A DNA stretch of 7,150 nucleotides from Candidatus Woesearchaeota archaeon (GTDB taxonomy: Archaea > Nanobdellota > Nanobdellia > Nanobdellales > Nanobdellaceae): assembly GCA_964468425.1 (NCBI GenBank), contig CAYXSZ010000027.1, forward strand, positions 1 to 7,150. Direction: 5' to 3'. Positions 2 to 4,215 of this stretch are shown here, in pieces. The translations under genes were made by a program, and so were the position numbers. Below the pieces are notes generated by a model. That model saw nothing but the letters and a program-made list of their open reading frames with translations. It ran no database searches and was not told the origin of the DNA. Each line of letters begins with the position of its first letter. The first letter of the stretch is position 1.

Positions 2-1444
2 TACAATGTAGTAATTAACTCGTTGCGGAACCTTAAAGAGGTTGCGGGTAAAAAACCTTTGATCTACAATGCACATCCAGCTGGATGGGGCTGGAGAGCG
101 AATTACATTGTTGAAGAAGGGAGGGAATACATAGATATAATTTTCTCAGAGGCTACTGAGGTAGATTTTCAACCTTTGGGTTTTCTATTCGAAATATCTA
201 AATTAGTTAAAGGCTTGTCTCAAAGGGAGGTTTGGACGTCTCGAAACGCATTTTATCTCTATCATACCACTCTCCCAACGTCAAAAGCAGCCTTAGAGCT
301 TGGAATTTGGGAAATAGTCTCCGCTGGAGCTAGACCCCTCGTAACTACATTTTTATCTACATATTATCAGAATAAGCAAAAGCTTAAGGAGGTTTTTTCG
401 AAAGTTTTGAGGAAAGTGGAAGCTGTTCAATATTACTTAGACGAAGCCGAGCCAGTCTCGGAGGTGTTAATCGTTTATTCAAACAAAACTAGAGATTATA
501 TTGGAAAGGAGAATCCAGCGTTGTATGACGATGAAGTCAGAGGATTCTTTCACTTTTTTTATTGGAACAATTATCAAGTTGGTTTTATAGGAGACAGAGC
601 GTTGGCTAGTGGAAAGTTAGACGACTTTAGAATTCTAGTTCTTCCAAACAAAGCTGTTATGTCTAAAGAAGAATCTAAAGTTATTAAGAAACTTAGTTCC
701 AGCAAAACAGTTCTGGCAACTTATCTAACTTCTCTATATAAAGATTTTAGGCGAAGAAGAGATTTCCTATTGCAGGACGAATTTGGAGCGTCCTTCGACG
801 AAGTCATCGAGTCTCCCTGGTTCTACATCAAAAACGTAGTATTTGGGGACTACGATCCTTCAGGTCAAAAGATTTGTAGAGTTTCTCCATTGAACAGAAA
901 GTTCATTAAGTTTGAGATCTATTCTGGAAAGTATAAGTTTGGATACGAGTACGTTCTGGGGGTGTCTCCTCCTCCTAGAGGCGAAAAAGTTATTTCTTTC
1001 GTAACATCGAACAAAATTACATACATCCCATTTCAGCTTGGAAGAATGTTATTTTATTACTCTCATCACTCGTACGAGAAGTTTGTCAAGGAATTACTCA
1101 ATGGCTACAATAAATTAATCAAGGTAAGCAAGAAGACGGTGAGAGCTACGATTTGGAAGAATGATGACAAACTTTACATCTGCTTGTTGAACTATAACTG
1201 CAATGAGAGGATGTCTATCGTACCTCCACTAAAAACTACATTCTCTACATATGATAGACCAACTATAAGACAGCTCCAGAGGATTTCTACAGTGCATAAC
1301 ATCGTCCTAAAAGTTTTGGGAAACTTCAGCAAAGTTTCGTCGCTGTTTAGCTCAACGAAACCTAAGATAATTAAAAAAGATAAAGGTTATACTATCATAA
1401 AGGTTCCGGAGCTTAAAGTGTTTGATTTATTAATCTTAGAATGA
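2..1444 (+). CDS. 5'-partial CDS; glycoside hydrolase family 42-like architecture (end of a putative TIM barrel, then a trimerisation / class-I-GATase-like middle domain, then a C-terminal beta-sandwich)
   Basis: The frame is open to the left window edge with no in-frame stop before the TTG at 23, and there is no in-frame ATG until about codon 212, so the gene probably starts upstream. The block EVLIVYSNKTRDY...YDDEVRGFFHFFYWNNYQVGFIGDRALASGKLDDFRILVLPNKAVMSKEESKVIKKL...TVLATY follows the GH42 middle-domain pattern (kvAilfd...y..L.elgi.vd.v....dls.YklvvaP.l.lvs.e....l..yv..GG.lv.ty). The C-terminal TVRATIWKNDDKLYICLLNYNCNE...YTIIKVPELKVFDLLILE resembles the 'ylfvlN.s' beta-sandwich tail of glycosidases. 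This is pattern recognition by eye, not a computed alignment. Confidence 0.8.
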   Translation, partial: YNVVINSLRNLKEVAGKKPLIYNAHPAGWGWRANYIVEEGREYIDIIFSEATEVDFQPLGFLFEISKLVKGLSQREVWTSRNAFYLYHTTLPTSKAALELGIWEIVSAGARPLVTTFLSTYYQNKQKLKEVFSKVLRKVEAVQYYLDEAEPVSEVLIVYSNKTRDYIGKENPALYDDEVRGFFHFFYWNNYQVGFIGDRALASGKLDDFRILVLPNKAVMSKEESKVIKKLSSSKTVLATYLTSLYKDFRRRRDFLLQDEFGASFDEVIESPWFYIKNVVFGDYDPSGQKICRVSPLNRKFIKFEIYSGKYKFGYEYVLGVSPPPRGEKVISFVTSNKITYIPFQLGRMLFYYSHHSYEKFVKELLNGYNKLIKVSKKTVRATIWKNDDKLYICLLNYNCNERMSIVPPLKTTFSTYDRPTIRQLQRISTVHNIVLKVLGNFSKVSSLFSSTKPKIIKKDKGYTIIKVPELKVFDLLILE

Positions 1445-2244
1445 AAATCATACTTAACAGACCGAATTCCTTCGAAGCTGCGATAGTTCTTAGAACTCTT
1501 TATTATTCCACTTACTTTGAAGATGTAGAAGTTTATATAGCTGGAAAGGTCAGGAGAGATCAGATCGCTCGTTACTCGCGCGTTCCGATCTACGAGTTAA
1601 AAGAAAAGATTCGATGGACTCTCCCCGTTCTTGACGAAAACACTTATATTCTTGATCCAGATGCAAATAAGTCTATTTTTGAAGTAGAAACTCCAGAAAA
1701 TCTCTTAATAGACTTCTCTGGAGAGTTCTTTGGAAGATTTTCACCAGTTCGTGGAATTGGCTTGAGGTTCTACCCTTACGAAGCAGTTTCTGCAATTTAT
1801 TACTTATTCGTTCGCTCGCTACGTAAAAAAATTCCGAATCTTAGAAATACGTTGGATAAAATCTCTCTATATCTAGCAAAGCGCTTTTTAGATTTCTTGG
1901 ACAGCGATTTTCCAAATCCTCGTAAGCTCCTTTATATTTTACAGCAAGTACACAAGATAAAGAAAATGGTTCTCGGTTTAAAAGGATTTCGTGTTGAGGG
2001 AAACCACAAAACATTTAAAGTTACGTACTTTTTCGAGTTTTTTGATAGAAATTTGAGAAAAATCTCTGAAGCAAAAGCATTTTACAGTGAAAATGTGTTA
2101 AGAGTTCCAGTTTTTACTGGAAACTCTATAGAATACCGAGAATTCTTTTTAGATCGTGATAGACAGCGAGTTTATATCACAAAAGATTTTTACATCTCGA
2201 GAGAAAAGGAAGATTCGCTTGGATTATTCGCTCAAATGTTTTAA
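1441..2244 (+). CDS. hypothetical protein (267 aa), translationally coupled to the upstream ORF
   Basis: Uninterrupted 267-codon ORF. Its ATG (1441-1443) overlaps the upstream TGA (1442-1444) as ATGA. Composition and codon usage resemble the neighbouring genes. I recognise no catalytic or family motif. Confidence 0.75.
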   Translation: MKIILNRPNSFEAAIVLRTLYYSTYFEDVEVYIAGKVRRDQIARYSRVPIYELKEKIRWTLPVLDENTYILDPDANKSIFEVETPENLLIDFSGEFFGRFSPVRGIGLRFYPYEAVSAIYYLFVRSLRKKIPNLRNTLDKISLYLAKRFLDFLDSDFPNPRKLLYILQQVHKIKKMVLGLKGFRVEGNHKTFKVTYFFEFFDRNLRKISEAKAFYSENVLRVPVFTGNSIEYREFFLDRDRQRVYITKDFYISREKEDSLGLFAQMF

Positions 2245-2269: not shown

Positions 2270-3085
2270 ATGAAAGCTGGATTGGAGATTCATCAACAGC
2301 TAAACACGAGAGAAAAACTTTTTTGCTCTTGTCCATCCATTCTTTCGGATAAAGTGTCTAAGCGAATTTTAAGAAAGCTTCGCGCAGTTGCAGGGGAAAC
2401 TGGTGAAATAGATGTCGCTGCACATTATGAGCAAACCAAAGGAAAATATATGGAATACGAATATGATAATTCTTATGCTTGCTTAGTAGAACTTGATGAA
2501 GAGCCGCCACATCTAATCAATGAGGAAGCTTTAAAGATTTCTTTGATTCTTGCAGAATTCTTTGGTATGCGAGTTCCATCGGTTCTTCAAGTTATGCGAA
2601 AGACTGTAGTAGACGGTTCAAATACTTCTGGTTTCCAGAGAACTGTTTTAATTGGGTTAAATGGTGAGTTAAATCTGAATGGAAAGAACATTACAATTCA
2701 AACGCTTTGTTTAGAAGAAGACGCTGCCAGGAAAATCAACGAGACGGAAGATAAAATAATTTACAGGCTTGATCGATTGGGGATTCCGCTCGTAGAGATT
2801 GCTACAGGACCTGAGCTCGAGAGCCCAGAAGAAGTTAAGGAGTGTGCCAAAAAAATTGGATTGATCTTGAGATTAACTCGTAAAGTGAAAAGAGGTTTAG
2901 GCACTATTCGACAAGATATAAACATTTCTATTCCTGAAGGAGAAAAAATAGAAATAAAGGGGGCGCAGGACCTAGATATAATTCCAGATATTGTTAGAAA
3001 CGAGGTGGAGCGTCTGAAAAAACTTTTAGAGTGGCAAAAACTCGTTAAGGAAAGAGGAATAGAAAAGATAATTATCGAAGATTAG
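2270..3085 (+). CDS. gatE: Glutamyl-tRNA(Gln) amidotransferase subunit E, N-terminal fragment only (first part of the cradle domain; split or truncated gene)
   Basis: Hallmark GatE blocks appear in the correct order: GLEIHQQL..KLFCSCP, CLVELDEEPPH, MRKTVVDGSNTSGFQRT, LCLEEDAARK, YRLDRLGIPLVEIATGP, KVKRGLGTIRQDINISI, IEIKGAQDLDIIPDIV. The ORF stops after 271 aa, whereas full-length archaeal GatE is about 600-630 aa. No GatE-like continuation exists in any + frame downstream. Confidence 0.9.
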   Translation: MKAGLEIHQQLNTREKLFCSCPSILSDKVSKRILRKLRAVAGETGEIDVAAHYEQTKGKYMEYEYDNSYACLVELDEEPPHLINEEALKISLILAEFFGMRVPSVLQVMRKTVVDGSNTSGFQRTVLIGLNGELNLNGKNITIQTLCLEEDAARKINETEDKIIYRLDRLGIPLVEIATGPELESPEEVKECAKKIGLILRLTRKVKRGLGTIRQDINISIPEGEKIEIKGAQDLDIIPDIVRNEVERLKKLLEWQKLVKERGIEKIIIED

Positions 3086-4215
3086 CCTAGGTGAAACATC
3101 TCGAGTGTAGCATCCTCTTCCTCCAAGCTTTTTTCTAAAGATTCCCTCATTCTTCCGAGGTTAAACTTTTCTTTCTTGAACCTCCATATAAACTTTGAAA
3201 GAACTCTAACTATCTTGTGAATTATGTATGCAGCAATTAACGCTCCTACAATGAATAGTGCGAATTCTTTAGGCGTCATTGGGTGATGTACTATAAAACC
3301 ACCAACTTCAACTATTACGTAAATTATAGCGATGTTTCTAACAGTTTCTAGCTCTTGTTGATGCATTGCCCACCTTAAAACTTCGATATTTTCAATTGTT
3401 TCTTTAGTGTACTCTATAGTTTTCTTCCAAAGATGTTTAGTGTACCTAATTAAGTACTCGCATTCTTCGTAAAGAGTTTCTACAACTTCTTCATCGAAAA
3501 CATCTTTAAGGAGGTTTTTGGTTCCAACCAAAGCTTCTCCTACTTGCGAAAGCCTTACCTCAACATATTCTAGCTGGTGTTTGTATTTCACGAGTTCTTC
3601 TTTTAGTTGGAGTATTAACTGCATTGAAATGTTGGTAGGTTTTCTAATGTTGTCAACAGCTTCCCAAACCCGTCTGTGTATGTTTATAACATTTCTCGCA
3701 AACTTTATTATACAGACTAAAATAATTAAACAATGAACTAAGTATATTTGATTTTCCTTCATGTAATTCTCGTTTACCCAAATTTTGTTTTCAGAAATTA
3801 TAACATTTTTAGATTTATAAAGCTCATTTTTTACATCATCGCATTCCTTTTCAGAGATTATTATTTCTATAGGGGTTATGTCTCTCGATACAAGTGCAGG
3901 TACGGGCATTCCCGCTTTAAATATTTCTGAAAAAACCTCAAGAATGTTGTTTAATCTCTTTAATGCTACATTGGGGTTATTTGCTTTGGAAATTACTACC
4001 CCATTGGAGAATACGGAAATTACTCCATCTTCGTAATCGAGCTCCAATTCTAAAATCTTACCGTCCTTTACCTGAAAGCGTACTGGTTTTATTTTTTCTA
4101 AAAGTTTTTCAGGATCTTTCACGTAAGGATTTGGTCTAGCGCCTTCAACTAATTTTACTACTTCTAAGAAGTGAACAGCTGTACGAGGGGTCCAAATTCC
4201 ATACATAGTTTCCAT
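3082..4215 (-). CDS. membrane protein with CorA-like / DUF155 (RMD1-YagE)-like architecture: soluble N-terminal alpha/beta domain, long helical region, C-terminal two-TM hairpin; no GMN motif
   Basis: 377-codon ORF. Residues 295-336 (nt 3208-3333) read IAIIYVIVEVGGFIVHH-PMTPKE-FALFIVGALIAAYIIHKIV, which is two hydrophobic helices with a short loop, followed by a 41-aa charged tail. The preceding ~130 aa are heptad-like and helical (LILQLKEELVKYKHQLEYVEVRLSQVGEAL...). The N-terminal DGVISVFSNGVVISKANNP resembles the 'vfvFryGvvVfw' strand pair of DUF155. The family assignment is tentative. Confidence 0.75.
   Translation of the reverse strand: METMYGIWTPRTAVHFLEVVKLVEGARPNPYVKDPEKLLEKIKPVRFQVKDGKILELELDYEDGVISVFSNGVVISKANNPNVALKRLNNILEVFSEIFKAGMPVPALVSRDITPIEIIISEKECDDVKNELYKSKNVIISENKIWVNENYMKENQIYLVHCLIILVCIIKFARNVINIHRRVWEAVDNIRKPTNISMQLILQLKEELVKYKHQLEYVEVRLSQVGEALVGTKNLLKDVFDEEVVETLYEECEYLIRYTKHLWKKTIEYTKETIENIEVLRWAMHQQELETVRNIAIIYVIVEVGGFIVHHPMTPKEFALFIVGALIAAYIIHKIVRVLSKFIWRFKKEKFNLGRMRESLEKSLEEEDATLEMFHLG
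3129..3134 (+). terminator. candidate archaeal oligo-T termination signal for the gatE-fragment transcript
   Basis: A T6 run (AGCTTTTTTCT) lies about 45 nt downstream of the gatE TAG, inside the 3' end of the convergent gene. Archaeal RNAP terminates at oligo-T tracts. No experimental support is available from sequence alone. Confidence 0.25.

Follow-up and report, generated by a model that had tools for sequence, protein, structure and literature searches.

Essential translation enzymes are encoded in pieces in the reduced genomes of the nanoarchaea, and the split of gatE, the gene for a subunit of the Glu-tRNA(Gln) amidotransferase, is a published hallmark of the Nanoarchaeota. Published tables give the amidotransferase a 'same site' split in Nanoarchaeum equitans (NEQ245-396) and in Nst1, 'Nanobsidianus stetteri' (Nst197-449) (Podar 2013, Table 1, PMC3655853), to which Nps 2280-3415 of Nanopusillus acidilobi was later added, again as 'same site' (Wurch et al. 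2016, Supplementary Table 1, PMC4935971). Here we analyse an open reading frame (ORF) at positions 2270..3085 of contig CAYXSZ010000027.1, a stretch of 7,150 nt that is called the window throughout, which encodes only the N-terminal part of GatE. An initial annotation, made from the sequence letters and the ORF list of the window, had taken it for a candidate split gene and had pointed, correctly, to a split amidotransferase subunit in N. equitans. The follow-up is computational only, and for the most part it confirms what is already known, the gene being a new ortholog of a known split gene.

In N. equitans the GatDE route has been confirmed experimentally, as stated by Podar 2013 citing Sheppard et al. 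2008 (PMC3655853), and gatD lies at a third locus in Nst1 and N. acidilobi (PMC3655853, PMC4935971). The alanyl-tRNA synthetase gene, alaS, is split in N. equitans (NEQ211/547) and unsplit in Nst1 (Podar 2013, Table 1, PMC3655853). Other nanoarchaeal split genes (reverse gyrase, the alpha and beta parts of N. equitans AlaRS, DPH2, archaeosine TGT, RNA polymerase B) represent the same kind of event, an essential enzyme of information processing encoded by two unlinked genes, in different proteins and at different breakpoints, and post-translational assembly is presumed for them; a 2020 paper (PMC11392972) reports alanylation assays with N. equitans AlaRS-alpha and -beta combined. The shared breakpoint in gatE has been used as evidence that genome fragmentation predates the separation of the marine and terrestrial lineages. 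What is added here is one more uncultured clade with the split, known from metagenomes of hydrothermal vents and elsewhere, a definition of the C-half partner family at the sequence level, the placing of the break in a coil and the first strand after it, where the insertion enters a discontinuous domain, with an overlap of seven codons, and the presence of unsplit close relatives, which hold either the ancestral or a re-fused junction and provide a natural control for completion of the catalytic domain in trans.

The product of the ORF has the catalytic (cradle) domain of GatE with its conserved motifs. Every invariant column of GatE alignments of 30 and 67 sequences is kept in it, and Pfam GatB_N matches residues 2-254 with profile positions 2-234 of 277 (E 3e-50, 171 bits). 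The NCBIfam GatE equivalogs are matched only at model positions 11-277/630 and 9-274/622, with scores of 351.8 bits for TIGR00134, above the cut-off of 319.55, and 398 bits for NF003107, below the cut-off of 456. The ORF aligns with residues 8-271 of GatE from M. thermautotrophicus (2d6f_C, 619 aa) and with residues 15-279 of GatE from P. abyssi (1zq1_C, 633 aa). These canonical proteins (2D6F, 1ZQ1) have the same fold and motifs, but they are single polypeptides of 619-633 aa, and their architecture, with the cradle, a GAD insertion, a second cradle segment, a helical domain and a YqeY-like tail in one chain of ~620 aa, is not found in the ORF. Its product stops seven residues past the conserved ERGI motif, with the C-terminus ...IEIKGAQDLDIIPDIVRNEVERLKKLLEWQKLVKERGIEKIIIED (in a longer quotation, ...KERGIEKIIIED), at the point where full-length GatE enters the AspRS-like (GAD) insertion. 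The last ~43 positions of the GatB_N profile, RMYPETD included, follow the insertion domain and are absent. The initial annotation gave the 271-aa extent and this C-terminus correctly, and described the ORF as ending at a domain boundary. The stop does lie at the entry to the insertion domain, but the break is inside a discontinuous catalytic domain and not between autonomous domains. On profile and alignment evidence the ORF is the N-terminal half of gatE, and an ortholog of NEQ245, Nst1_197 and Nps_03415.

A homologue search covered 5.8 billion proteins, and the best 120 matches listed include about 20 clusters of proteins of 269-278 aa, which share 61-100% identity with the ORF and all rank above the first full-length GatE (protein and locus numbers beginning with P and L refer to our comparison set). 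They include a Nanopusillaceae metagenome-assembled genome (MAG) and the cultured Nanobdella aerobiophila; P0243, from an NCBI/ENA contig of 7,150 bp, is the exact window protein. The aligned N-halves end 6-11 residues past the conserved W....(K/R)ERGI motif, with the window at ERGI+7 and N. equitans at KRGI+8, the sole exception being P0007, which has a low-complexity tail and looks artefactual. The genes stand in at least six distinct contexts. The N-half is under purifying selection: against its homologues the window gene has a dN (non-synonymous divergence) of 0.19-0.33, dS (synonymous divergence) is saturated for most pairs, and dN/dS, which is an upper bound only, is ≤0.14 wherever computable. 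With its invariant columns kept and the same stop in ~20 clusters, the gene is most unlikely to be a decaying pseudogene, as the initial annotation had argued, and on this pattern the truncated form of GatE is a conserved gene and no accident.

A genome scan with the N-half alignment finds a 270-aa ORF in N. equitans Kin4-M (L021; AE017199.1:217,416-218,228), which is 61-62% identical to the window ORF and has the C-terminus ...KKRGIDGFELVEL. The window ORF is likewise a stand-alone N-half of ~270 aa that stops just past (K/R)ERGI, at the NEQ245 site, and comparison with the N. equitans pair puts the breakpoints within 1-2 residues of each other. In neighbour-joining (NJ) trees of the N region, the window ORF, N. 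equitans, Nanopusillaceae MAGs and Nanobdella form one clade with 83-100% bootstrap; this, and an unsplit alaS as in Nst1 and N. acidilobi, place the window in the Nanoarchaeum/Nanopusillus/Nanobdella lineage. Within it, the N. equitans group is its own 100%-supported branch, and the window organism lies outside that branch, in another clade.

The split site is also the same in Nst1 (197/449), N. acidilobi (03415/02280) and Nanobdella (P0020/P0292), whose N-halves have 269-271 aa and are 62-68% identical to the window ORF, and whose C-halves have 381-385 aa. They are terrestrial, with a guanine-plus-cytosine (GC) content of ~24%, and have flagellin, Memo and HSP20 genes beside the N-half, unlike the window. 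The published order around the N. acidilobi N-half is phosphoesterase, GTPase, HSP20, Memo-like, GatE-N, flagellar gene and NurA (PMC4935971). The same order is found in Nanobdella (L002) and in the Nanopusillaceae MAG (L007), and therefore their 269-271-aa proteins are the published N-halves.

The initial annotation proposed that the missing half may be encoded elsewhere, and stand-alone C-halves with exactly the predicted content do exist. The route to them led from the genome scan to an unsplit gatE (P0121, 649 aa; L016:9995..11944 on the MAG contig CAZNIQ010000001.1), whose C region was then used as query. It recovered a second unsplit protein (P0122, 650 aa), the stand-alone proteins P0123-P0141 (374-385 aa) and P0148 (336 aa), and P0148 in turn recovered NEQ396 (P0250, 328 aa) and the C-halves of Nst1 (P0265) and Nanobdella (P0292). 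The family spans 328-385 aa and contains the GAD insertion, the last cradle segment with RMYPETD, the helical domain and the YqeY tail. In P0126, Pfam places GAD at residues 25-112 and GatB_Yqey at 287-381, and residues 107-171 match GatB_N profile positions 233-276 with 18 bits, below the Pfam cut-off of 23.4 bits; in unsplit P0121, GatB_N, GAD and GatB_Yqey stand together in one chain. The N-half stops at about GatB_N position 234 and the C-half resumes there, and therefore the halves partition the catalytic profile around the GAD insertion. Two separately encoded proteins hold every part of GatE once, save for an overlap of seven residues.

The halves are unlinked. No C-half lies within +/-10 kb of the N-half in any nanoarchaeal N-half locus searched, N. 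equitans included, and at the C-half loci L096, L097 and L098 the flanking genes are unrelated and the C-half has its own ATG and upstream region, each half having its own start, stop and neighbours. Both halves are present in each of the complete genomes checked (N. equitans and Nanobdella), in Nanobdella on one chromosome of 668,961 bp. The gene order at L098, TatD-TFE-alpha-GatE_C-HIT, is that of the published C-half context; the published C-half neighbours, taken from the Nst1 annotation table and N. equitans, were not found in the nanoarchaeal loci compared before L016 was found. Whether split or unsplit, GatE of the nanoarchaeal type is longer by ~40 residues in the stretch from RMYPETD to the helical domain (residues ~421-478 of P0121, at L016:~11255-11428, and ~160-215 of P0126), and these are predicted to form a three-stranded beta-meander and a helix. 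This segment is much shorter in the N. equitans group, where the C-halves have 328-338 aa, and accounts for the N. equitans C-half being ~55 aa shorter. NEQ396 has the GAD domain and starts MKAILKDVT..., within two residues of the start in the window clade.

A likely partner for the window N-half is a protein of the P0126 type, on the basis of co-occurrence and composition. P0126 (382 aa) is encoded on contig Ga0105700_1026948 of JGI metagenome 3300007771, and the same metagenome holds the twin of the window, the 14,665-bp contig Ga0105700_1023090, whose N-half, P0001, shows 1 aa change, and its gene 3 nt changes, relative to the window; over 3.2 kb the two DNAs are 99.56% identical. The near-identical C-halves P0124-P0127 come from JGI, NCBI and ENA, P0125 being the NCBI copy on a 7,505-bp contig, and these sources mirror those of four near-identical N-half variants. 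The N-half contigs have a GC content of 35.7-37.2% and the C-half contigs one of 37.7-37.8%. In tetranucleotide usage the C-half contigs correlate at 0.96-0.97 with the window and with its twin, where other nanoarchaeal or archaeal loci give 0.70-0.93.

The position of the break can be seen in structure predictions. The AlphaFold2 (AF2) model of unsplit P0121 has a mean predicted confidence (pLDDT) of 94.9 and a template-modelling score normalised to the target (TMt) of 0.81 to solved GatE chains, and its segments are listed in Table 1. The window N-half modelled alone (pLDDT 93.2) has the same elements as P0121, with a final helix at 235-261 and a low-confidence tail of 10 residues, and Foldseek superimposes it on the N-terminal region of solved GatE with a query-normalised score (TMq) of 0.86-0.90 (1zq1_C: TMq 0.90, root-mean-square deviation 2.1 Å). 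The end of the N-half corresponds to residue 270 of P0121 and the initiator Met of the C-half to residue 264, and the break in the model falls in the coil and the first strand of the insertion domain. On the solved structures it lies at about residues 272-279 of 2d6f_C and 278-285 of 1zq1_C.

It might be expected that the two halves abut at the break, but the junction and codon alignments show that they do not. The N-half tail EKIIIED and the C-half heads MIVKAKV and MIINTKI (L097:2777-2800; L098:10001-10024) are colinear with one and the same run of ~7 codons in the unsplit gene, which encodes EKVNYEI. From RGI to (E/D)(I/L)TD there are 8 residues in the unsplit proteins and 7 + 8 in the split pair, the halves overlapping by ~7 codons of the ancestral linker.

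Two observations on GatE elsewhere touch on this site. Many GatE proteins of 457-481 aa lacking the whole AspRS-like (GAD) insertion are found in MAGs labelled Woesearchaeota, Pacearchaeota or 'Nanoarchaeia' (L054, L065, L072 and L085; P0023, P0028, P0031, P0032, P0047 and most of P0023-P0120). In these the ...RQ helix leads through ~12-20 residues to RPMPGAARMYPETD, with the gap exactly at the nanoarchaeal split site. There are also GatE fragments on long contigs of other archaea, namely P0319 (Thorarchaeota, 388 aa, 38-kb contig), P0330 (371 aa) and P0042 (357 aa, 29-kb contig), whose ends are near the nanoarchaeal site and not at it, P0319 beginning ~30 residues upstream. These could be independent fissions, frameshifts or gene-calling artefacts.

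Taken together, we put the probability at roughly 90% that the window ORF is the N-half of a gatE split, in the nanoarchaeal lineage, into two separately transcribed and translated genes. The RMYPETD-bearing end of the discontinuous catalytic domain is on the C-half, and therefore an active cradle could be completed only in trans. The N-half would form most of the catalytic cradle, which phosphorylates and amidates Glu-tRNA(Gln), and the C-half (~382 aa in the window clade), expressed from an unlinked locus, would supply the GAD insertion, the last cradle strands with RMYPETD, and the helical and YqeY-like domains. The two would associate non-covalently in this organism to complete the cradle, and with GatD would make up a GatDE-type amidotransferase, the archaeal route to Gln-tRNA(Gln). 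Purifying selection on both halves, and the abundance listed for both in the N. acidilobi proteome table (PMC4935971), give indirect support to such an assembly. In the GatDE structures of Schmitt and of Oshikane and their colleagues (2005 and 2006), the cradle is said to hold the kinase/amidotransferase site, and the insertion, helical and tail domains to bind tRNA(Gln).

Three points weigh against this assignment. The window protein has Leu at position 249, a Gln column that is nearly invariant in GatE; this is the sole non-synonymous difference from the JGI copy, and is either a real variant or an assembly error. The link between P0001 or the window and P0126 consists of one shared metagenome and composition, with no common contig or bin. 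Moreover, the window is the whole of a 7,150-bp contig, so that for this genome neither the presence of the partner and of gatD nor the lack of GlnRS or an intact gatE can be seen from it.

The unsplit relatives bear on the history of the split. In the N part, P0121 and P0122 share 73-74% identity with the window ORF, and in the C part 46-51% with P0126; the N part of P0121 has 79-80% identity with P0006, a split N-half, and 63% with N. equitans. Unlike the window gene they are continuous ORFs with the one-piece junction ...KERGIEKVNYEIKEITDLF... and a single copy of the 8-residue linker, although they share the post-RMYPETD insertion. In N-region NJ trees the unsplit genes are nested among the split ones, with 92% support for a clade of the unsplit genes and the split ones outside the N. 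equitans group, and 0% for monophyly of the split genes. In C-region trees with full taxon sampling, the split C-halves are monophyletic (79%, 70.5%) with the unsplit pair as sister. The unsplit C regions are nearer to the outgroups than the split C-halves are, which points to probable faster evolution of the C-halves after fission, and tree artefacts are possible in either direction.

The simplest reading would be one fission, with L016 and P0122 representing the nearest never-split lineages. It fits because the unsplit genes hold a single copy of the linker and because the C-half start MI(V/I)x(A/T) is common to the window clade and to P0148 and P0249 of the N. equitans group (NEQ396 starts two residues later, MKAILK). 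If the N-region topology is true, either the halves were re-fused and the second copy of the linker was removed exactly, or this site broke independently more than once. We regard such a reversible or recurrent fission as unlikely, though worth keeping in mind. The overlap of seven codons may be the footprint of a fission by duplication with reciprocal truncation or by a staggered rearrangement, an origin that is speculative.

As an alternative to the two-gene amidotransferase, the N-half might work independently of the C-half, with another tRNA-binding partner or in a different role. AF2 gives it a confident, compact fold on its own, and the Woesearchaeota/Pacearchaeota-type GatE without the insertion domain shows that the family tolerates loss of domains. 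However, those short proteins keep the second cradle segment and the tail in cis, the RMYPETD segment is part of the same Pfam catalytic-domain model as the N-half, every complete genome checked has both halves, and a matching C-half occurs in the same sample. We therefore consider independence to be very improbable.

A somewhat weaker proposal is that the ORF is a truncated relic, Gln charging being left to an intact gatE elsewhere, to GlnRS or to the host. In its favour, the window holds no more than half a gene, an intact gatD-gatE of crenarchaeal type occurs in a MAG labelled Nanopusillaceae, and two close relatives have an unsplit gatE. Against this, the ~270-aa form has been kept in about 20 clusters with the GatE invariant columns and the low dN/dS noted above, both halves are present in the complete genomes of N. 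equitans and Nanobdella, and Glu/Gln-type synthetases are represented in Nst1 by a single gene. In N. acidilobi, abundance values are tabulated in the proteome for each half (Nps_03415 and Nps_02280) and for GatD, Nps_02755 (PMC4935971). It is thus most improbable that the gene is a relic.

N. equitans has a split intein in PolB, and its tRNA halves are joined in trans, so that joining of the GatE halves after expression, by a split intein or RNA trans-splicing, has precedents. The trans-joined tRNA halves are listed in Table 1 of Podar 2013 (PMC3655853). For GatE, however, the halves add up to 271 + 382 = 653 aa against 649-650 aa for the unsplit protein, the excess being the ~7-residue overlap, and there is therefore no room for intein halves. 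The N-half end ...IIIED and the C-half start MIVKAKV both align colinearly to the ancestral linker, neither half shows another domain in Pfam, and each has a start and a stop codon. Joining is scarcely credible on these grounds.

Finally, the suggestion that a continuous gene has been broken by an indel or a chimeric contig, for which one could cite the unsplit P0121 and P0122 in relatives and the apparently artefactual truncation of P0007, can be set aside as having a negligible chance of being right, as the window has no C-terminal coding potential in any frame, the downstream DNA is a convergent gene also present in related contigs, the C-half starts at an ATG of its own, with a separate upstream region and among unrelated genes, and the stop is unlikely to be an assembly error because near-identical 271-aa copies with the same stop occur, besides the window, on contigs of three JGI metagenomes and in one more ENA assembly (P0241).

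The same conclusion about the reading frame follows from searches of the window itself. Four C-terminal GatE queries, from Woesearchaeota-type and partial 620-aa GatE proteins, gave no tblastn match in the window and the first 13 loci, and the nanoarchaeal-type C region of a close relative gave none in the window. There is therefore no frameshifted remainder of gatE, in line with the initial annotation's rejection of a simple frameshift. The initial annotation was also right that the next gene is convergent and overlaps the stop codon, by 4 nt. The features of the window, together with the segments of the P0121 model and the codons at the junction, are collected in Table 1.

Table 1 Features of the window (positions in nt), segments of the unsplit P0121 model (positions in residues) and codons at the split junction
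Feature	Position	Strand	Description
GHL6-family protein, 3' two-thirds	23..1444 (listed ORF)	+	Putative glycosyl hydrolase, 678 aa in full, cut by contig end
267-aa ORF, unknown family	1441..2244	+	Immediately upstream of gatE N-half, 25-nt gap
TATA-like box TTTTAAAAA	2239..2247	+	23-31 nt upstream of gatE ATG
gatE N-half (271 aa + stop)	2270..3085	+	ATG start; first segment of GatE catalytic/cradle domain
Codon CTG (Leu249)	3014..3016	+	Gln in all other homologues compared (CAG in L099, JGI copy)
C-terminal tail EKIIIED (residues 265-271) after ERGI	3062..3082	+	Junction alignment, codon comparison; predicted coil, pLDDT falling
Stop codon TAG	3083..3085	+	Within 4-nt overlap (3082-3085) with 3' end of convergent gene
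Convergent 377-aa ORF	3082..4215	-	Hydrophobic C-terminal region; unrelated to GatE
Alanyl-tRNA synthetase, unsplit, 850 aa	4244..6796	-	Pfam and NCBIfam
P0121, long helix closing first cradle segment	234-260		AF2 model
P0121, coil (RGIEKVN)	261-267		AF2 model
P0121, first strand of GAD-like insertion	268-272		AF2 model
P0121, GAD-like insertion domain	268-392		AF2 model
P0121, second cradle segment strands	395-419		AF2 model
P0121, lineage-specific beta-meander and helix	426-473		AF2 model
P0121, helical and tail domains	480-648		AF2 model
N-half tail codons			GGA ATA GAA AAG ATA ATT ATC GAA GAT TAG
C-half head codons			ATG ATA ATA AAT ACA AAA ATC GTA GAT ATA ACT GAT
L016 unsplit codons			GGA ATA GAA AAG GTA AAC TAT GAA ATT AAA GAA ATA ACT GAT

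The upstream TATA box pointed out in the initial annotation is present, and is a candidate archaeal promoter that may give a leaderless or short-leader transcript. Similar A/T-rich (TTTTAAA-like) boxes are found ~25-30 nt before the ATG of the N-half and C-half genes of homologues, in genomes that are A+T-rich, and are compatible with independent archaeal promoters for the two halves. A scan for sigma-70 promoters and intrinsic terminators, which is not meaningful for an archaeon, gave nothing near the gene ends.

Upstream, the GHL6-family ORF and the 267-aa ORF share 4 nt (ATGA), which suggests that these two genes and the gatE N-half may form an operon. The TTG 'start' listed for the first of them is an artefact, because the contig end cuts the protein. 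A 264-267-aa ORF and the N-half are a conserved gene pair in the window clade and the P0006 lineage (window 1441-2244; L011:9184-9978; L099:9172-9975), and this upstream ORF has no match in Pfam or NCBIfam. The convergent 377-aa ORF has no family in Pfam or NCBIfam either. The intact alaS beyond it means that the window organism is not N. equitans, in which alaS is split, and resembles Nst1 and N. acidilobi. No tRNA, Rfam family, rRNA or ribosomal-protein marker was found in the window.

Archaeal gatE usually stands beside gatD, in gatDE operons. No gatD (asparaginase-type) was found among the window proteins with Pfam or NCBIfam, and the initial annotation's statement that gatD is not adjacent holds. 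Adjacent genes for gatD (437 aa) and an intact gatE (628 aa) are seen at L068:2576-5757, on contig JAVYNJ010000019.1 of a MAG labelled Nanopusillaceae (GC 26.6%). Both are crenarchaeal in type, with 50-55% identity to genes of Desulfurococcaceae and Thermoproteales, and either the split gene was replaced here by horizontal transfer or the contig is mis-binned.

Viral contigs scanned with the N-half protein gave no match, and with the RMYPETD DNA pattern gave two, of which the one examined is due to chance. Further split genes are probably present in the loci compared: a 592-aa ORF at L005:13679-15457 has only the zinc finger and helicase domains of reverse gyrase and is probably the N-half of a split reverse gyrase, and a 223-aa Diphthamide_syn ORF at L098:2276-2947 is probably a DPH2 half. 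It is worth adding that in L004, from a MAG of the N. equitans group, a CRISPR-Cas cluster with Cas6, Cas4, Cas1, DevR/Cas7 and a Cas3-like helicase comes directly after the N-half (L004:10816-20816).

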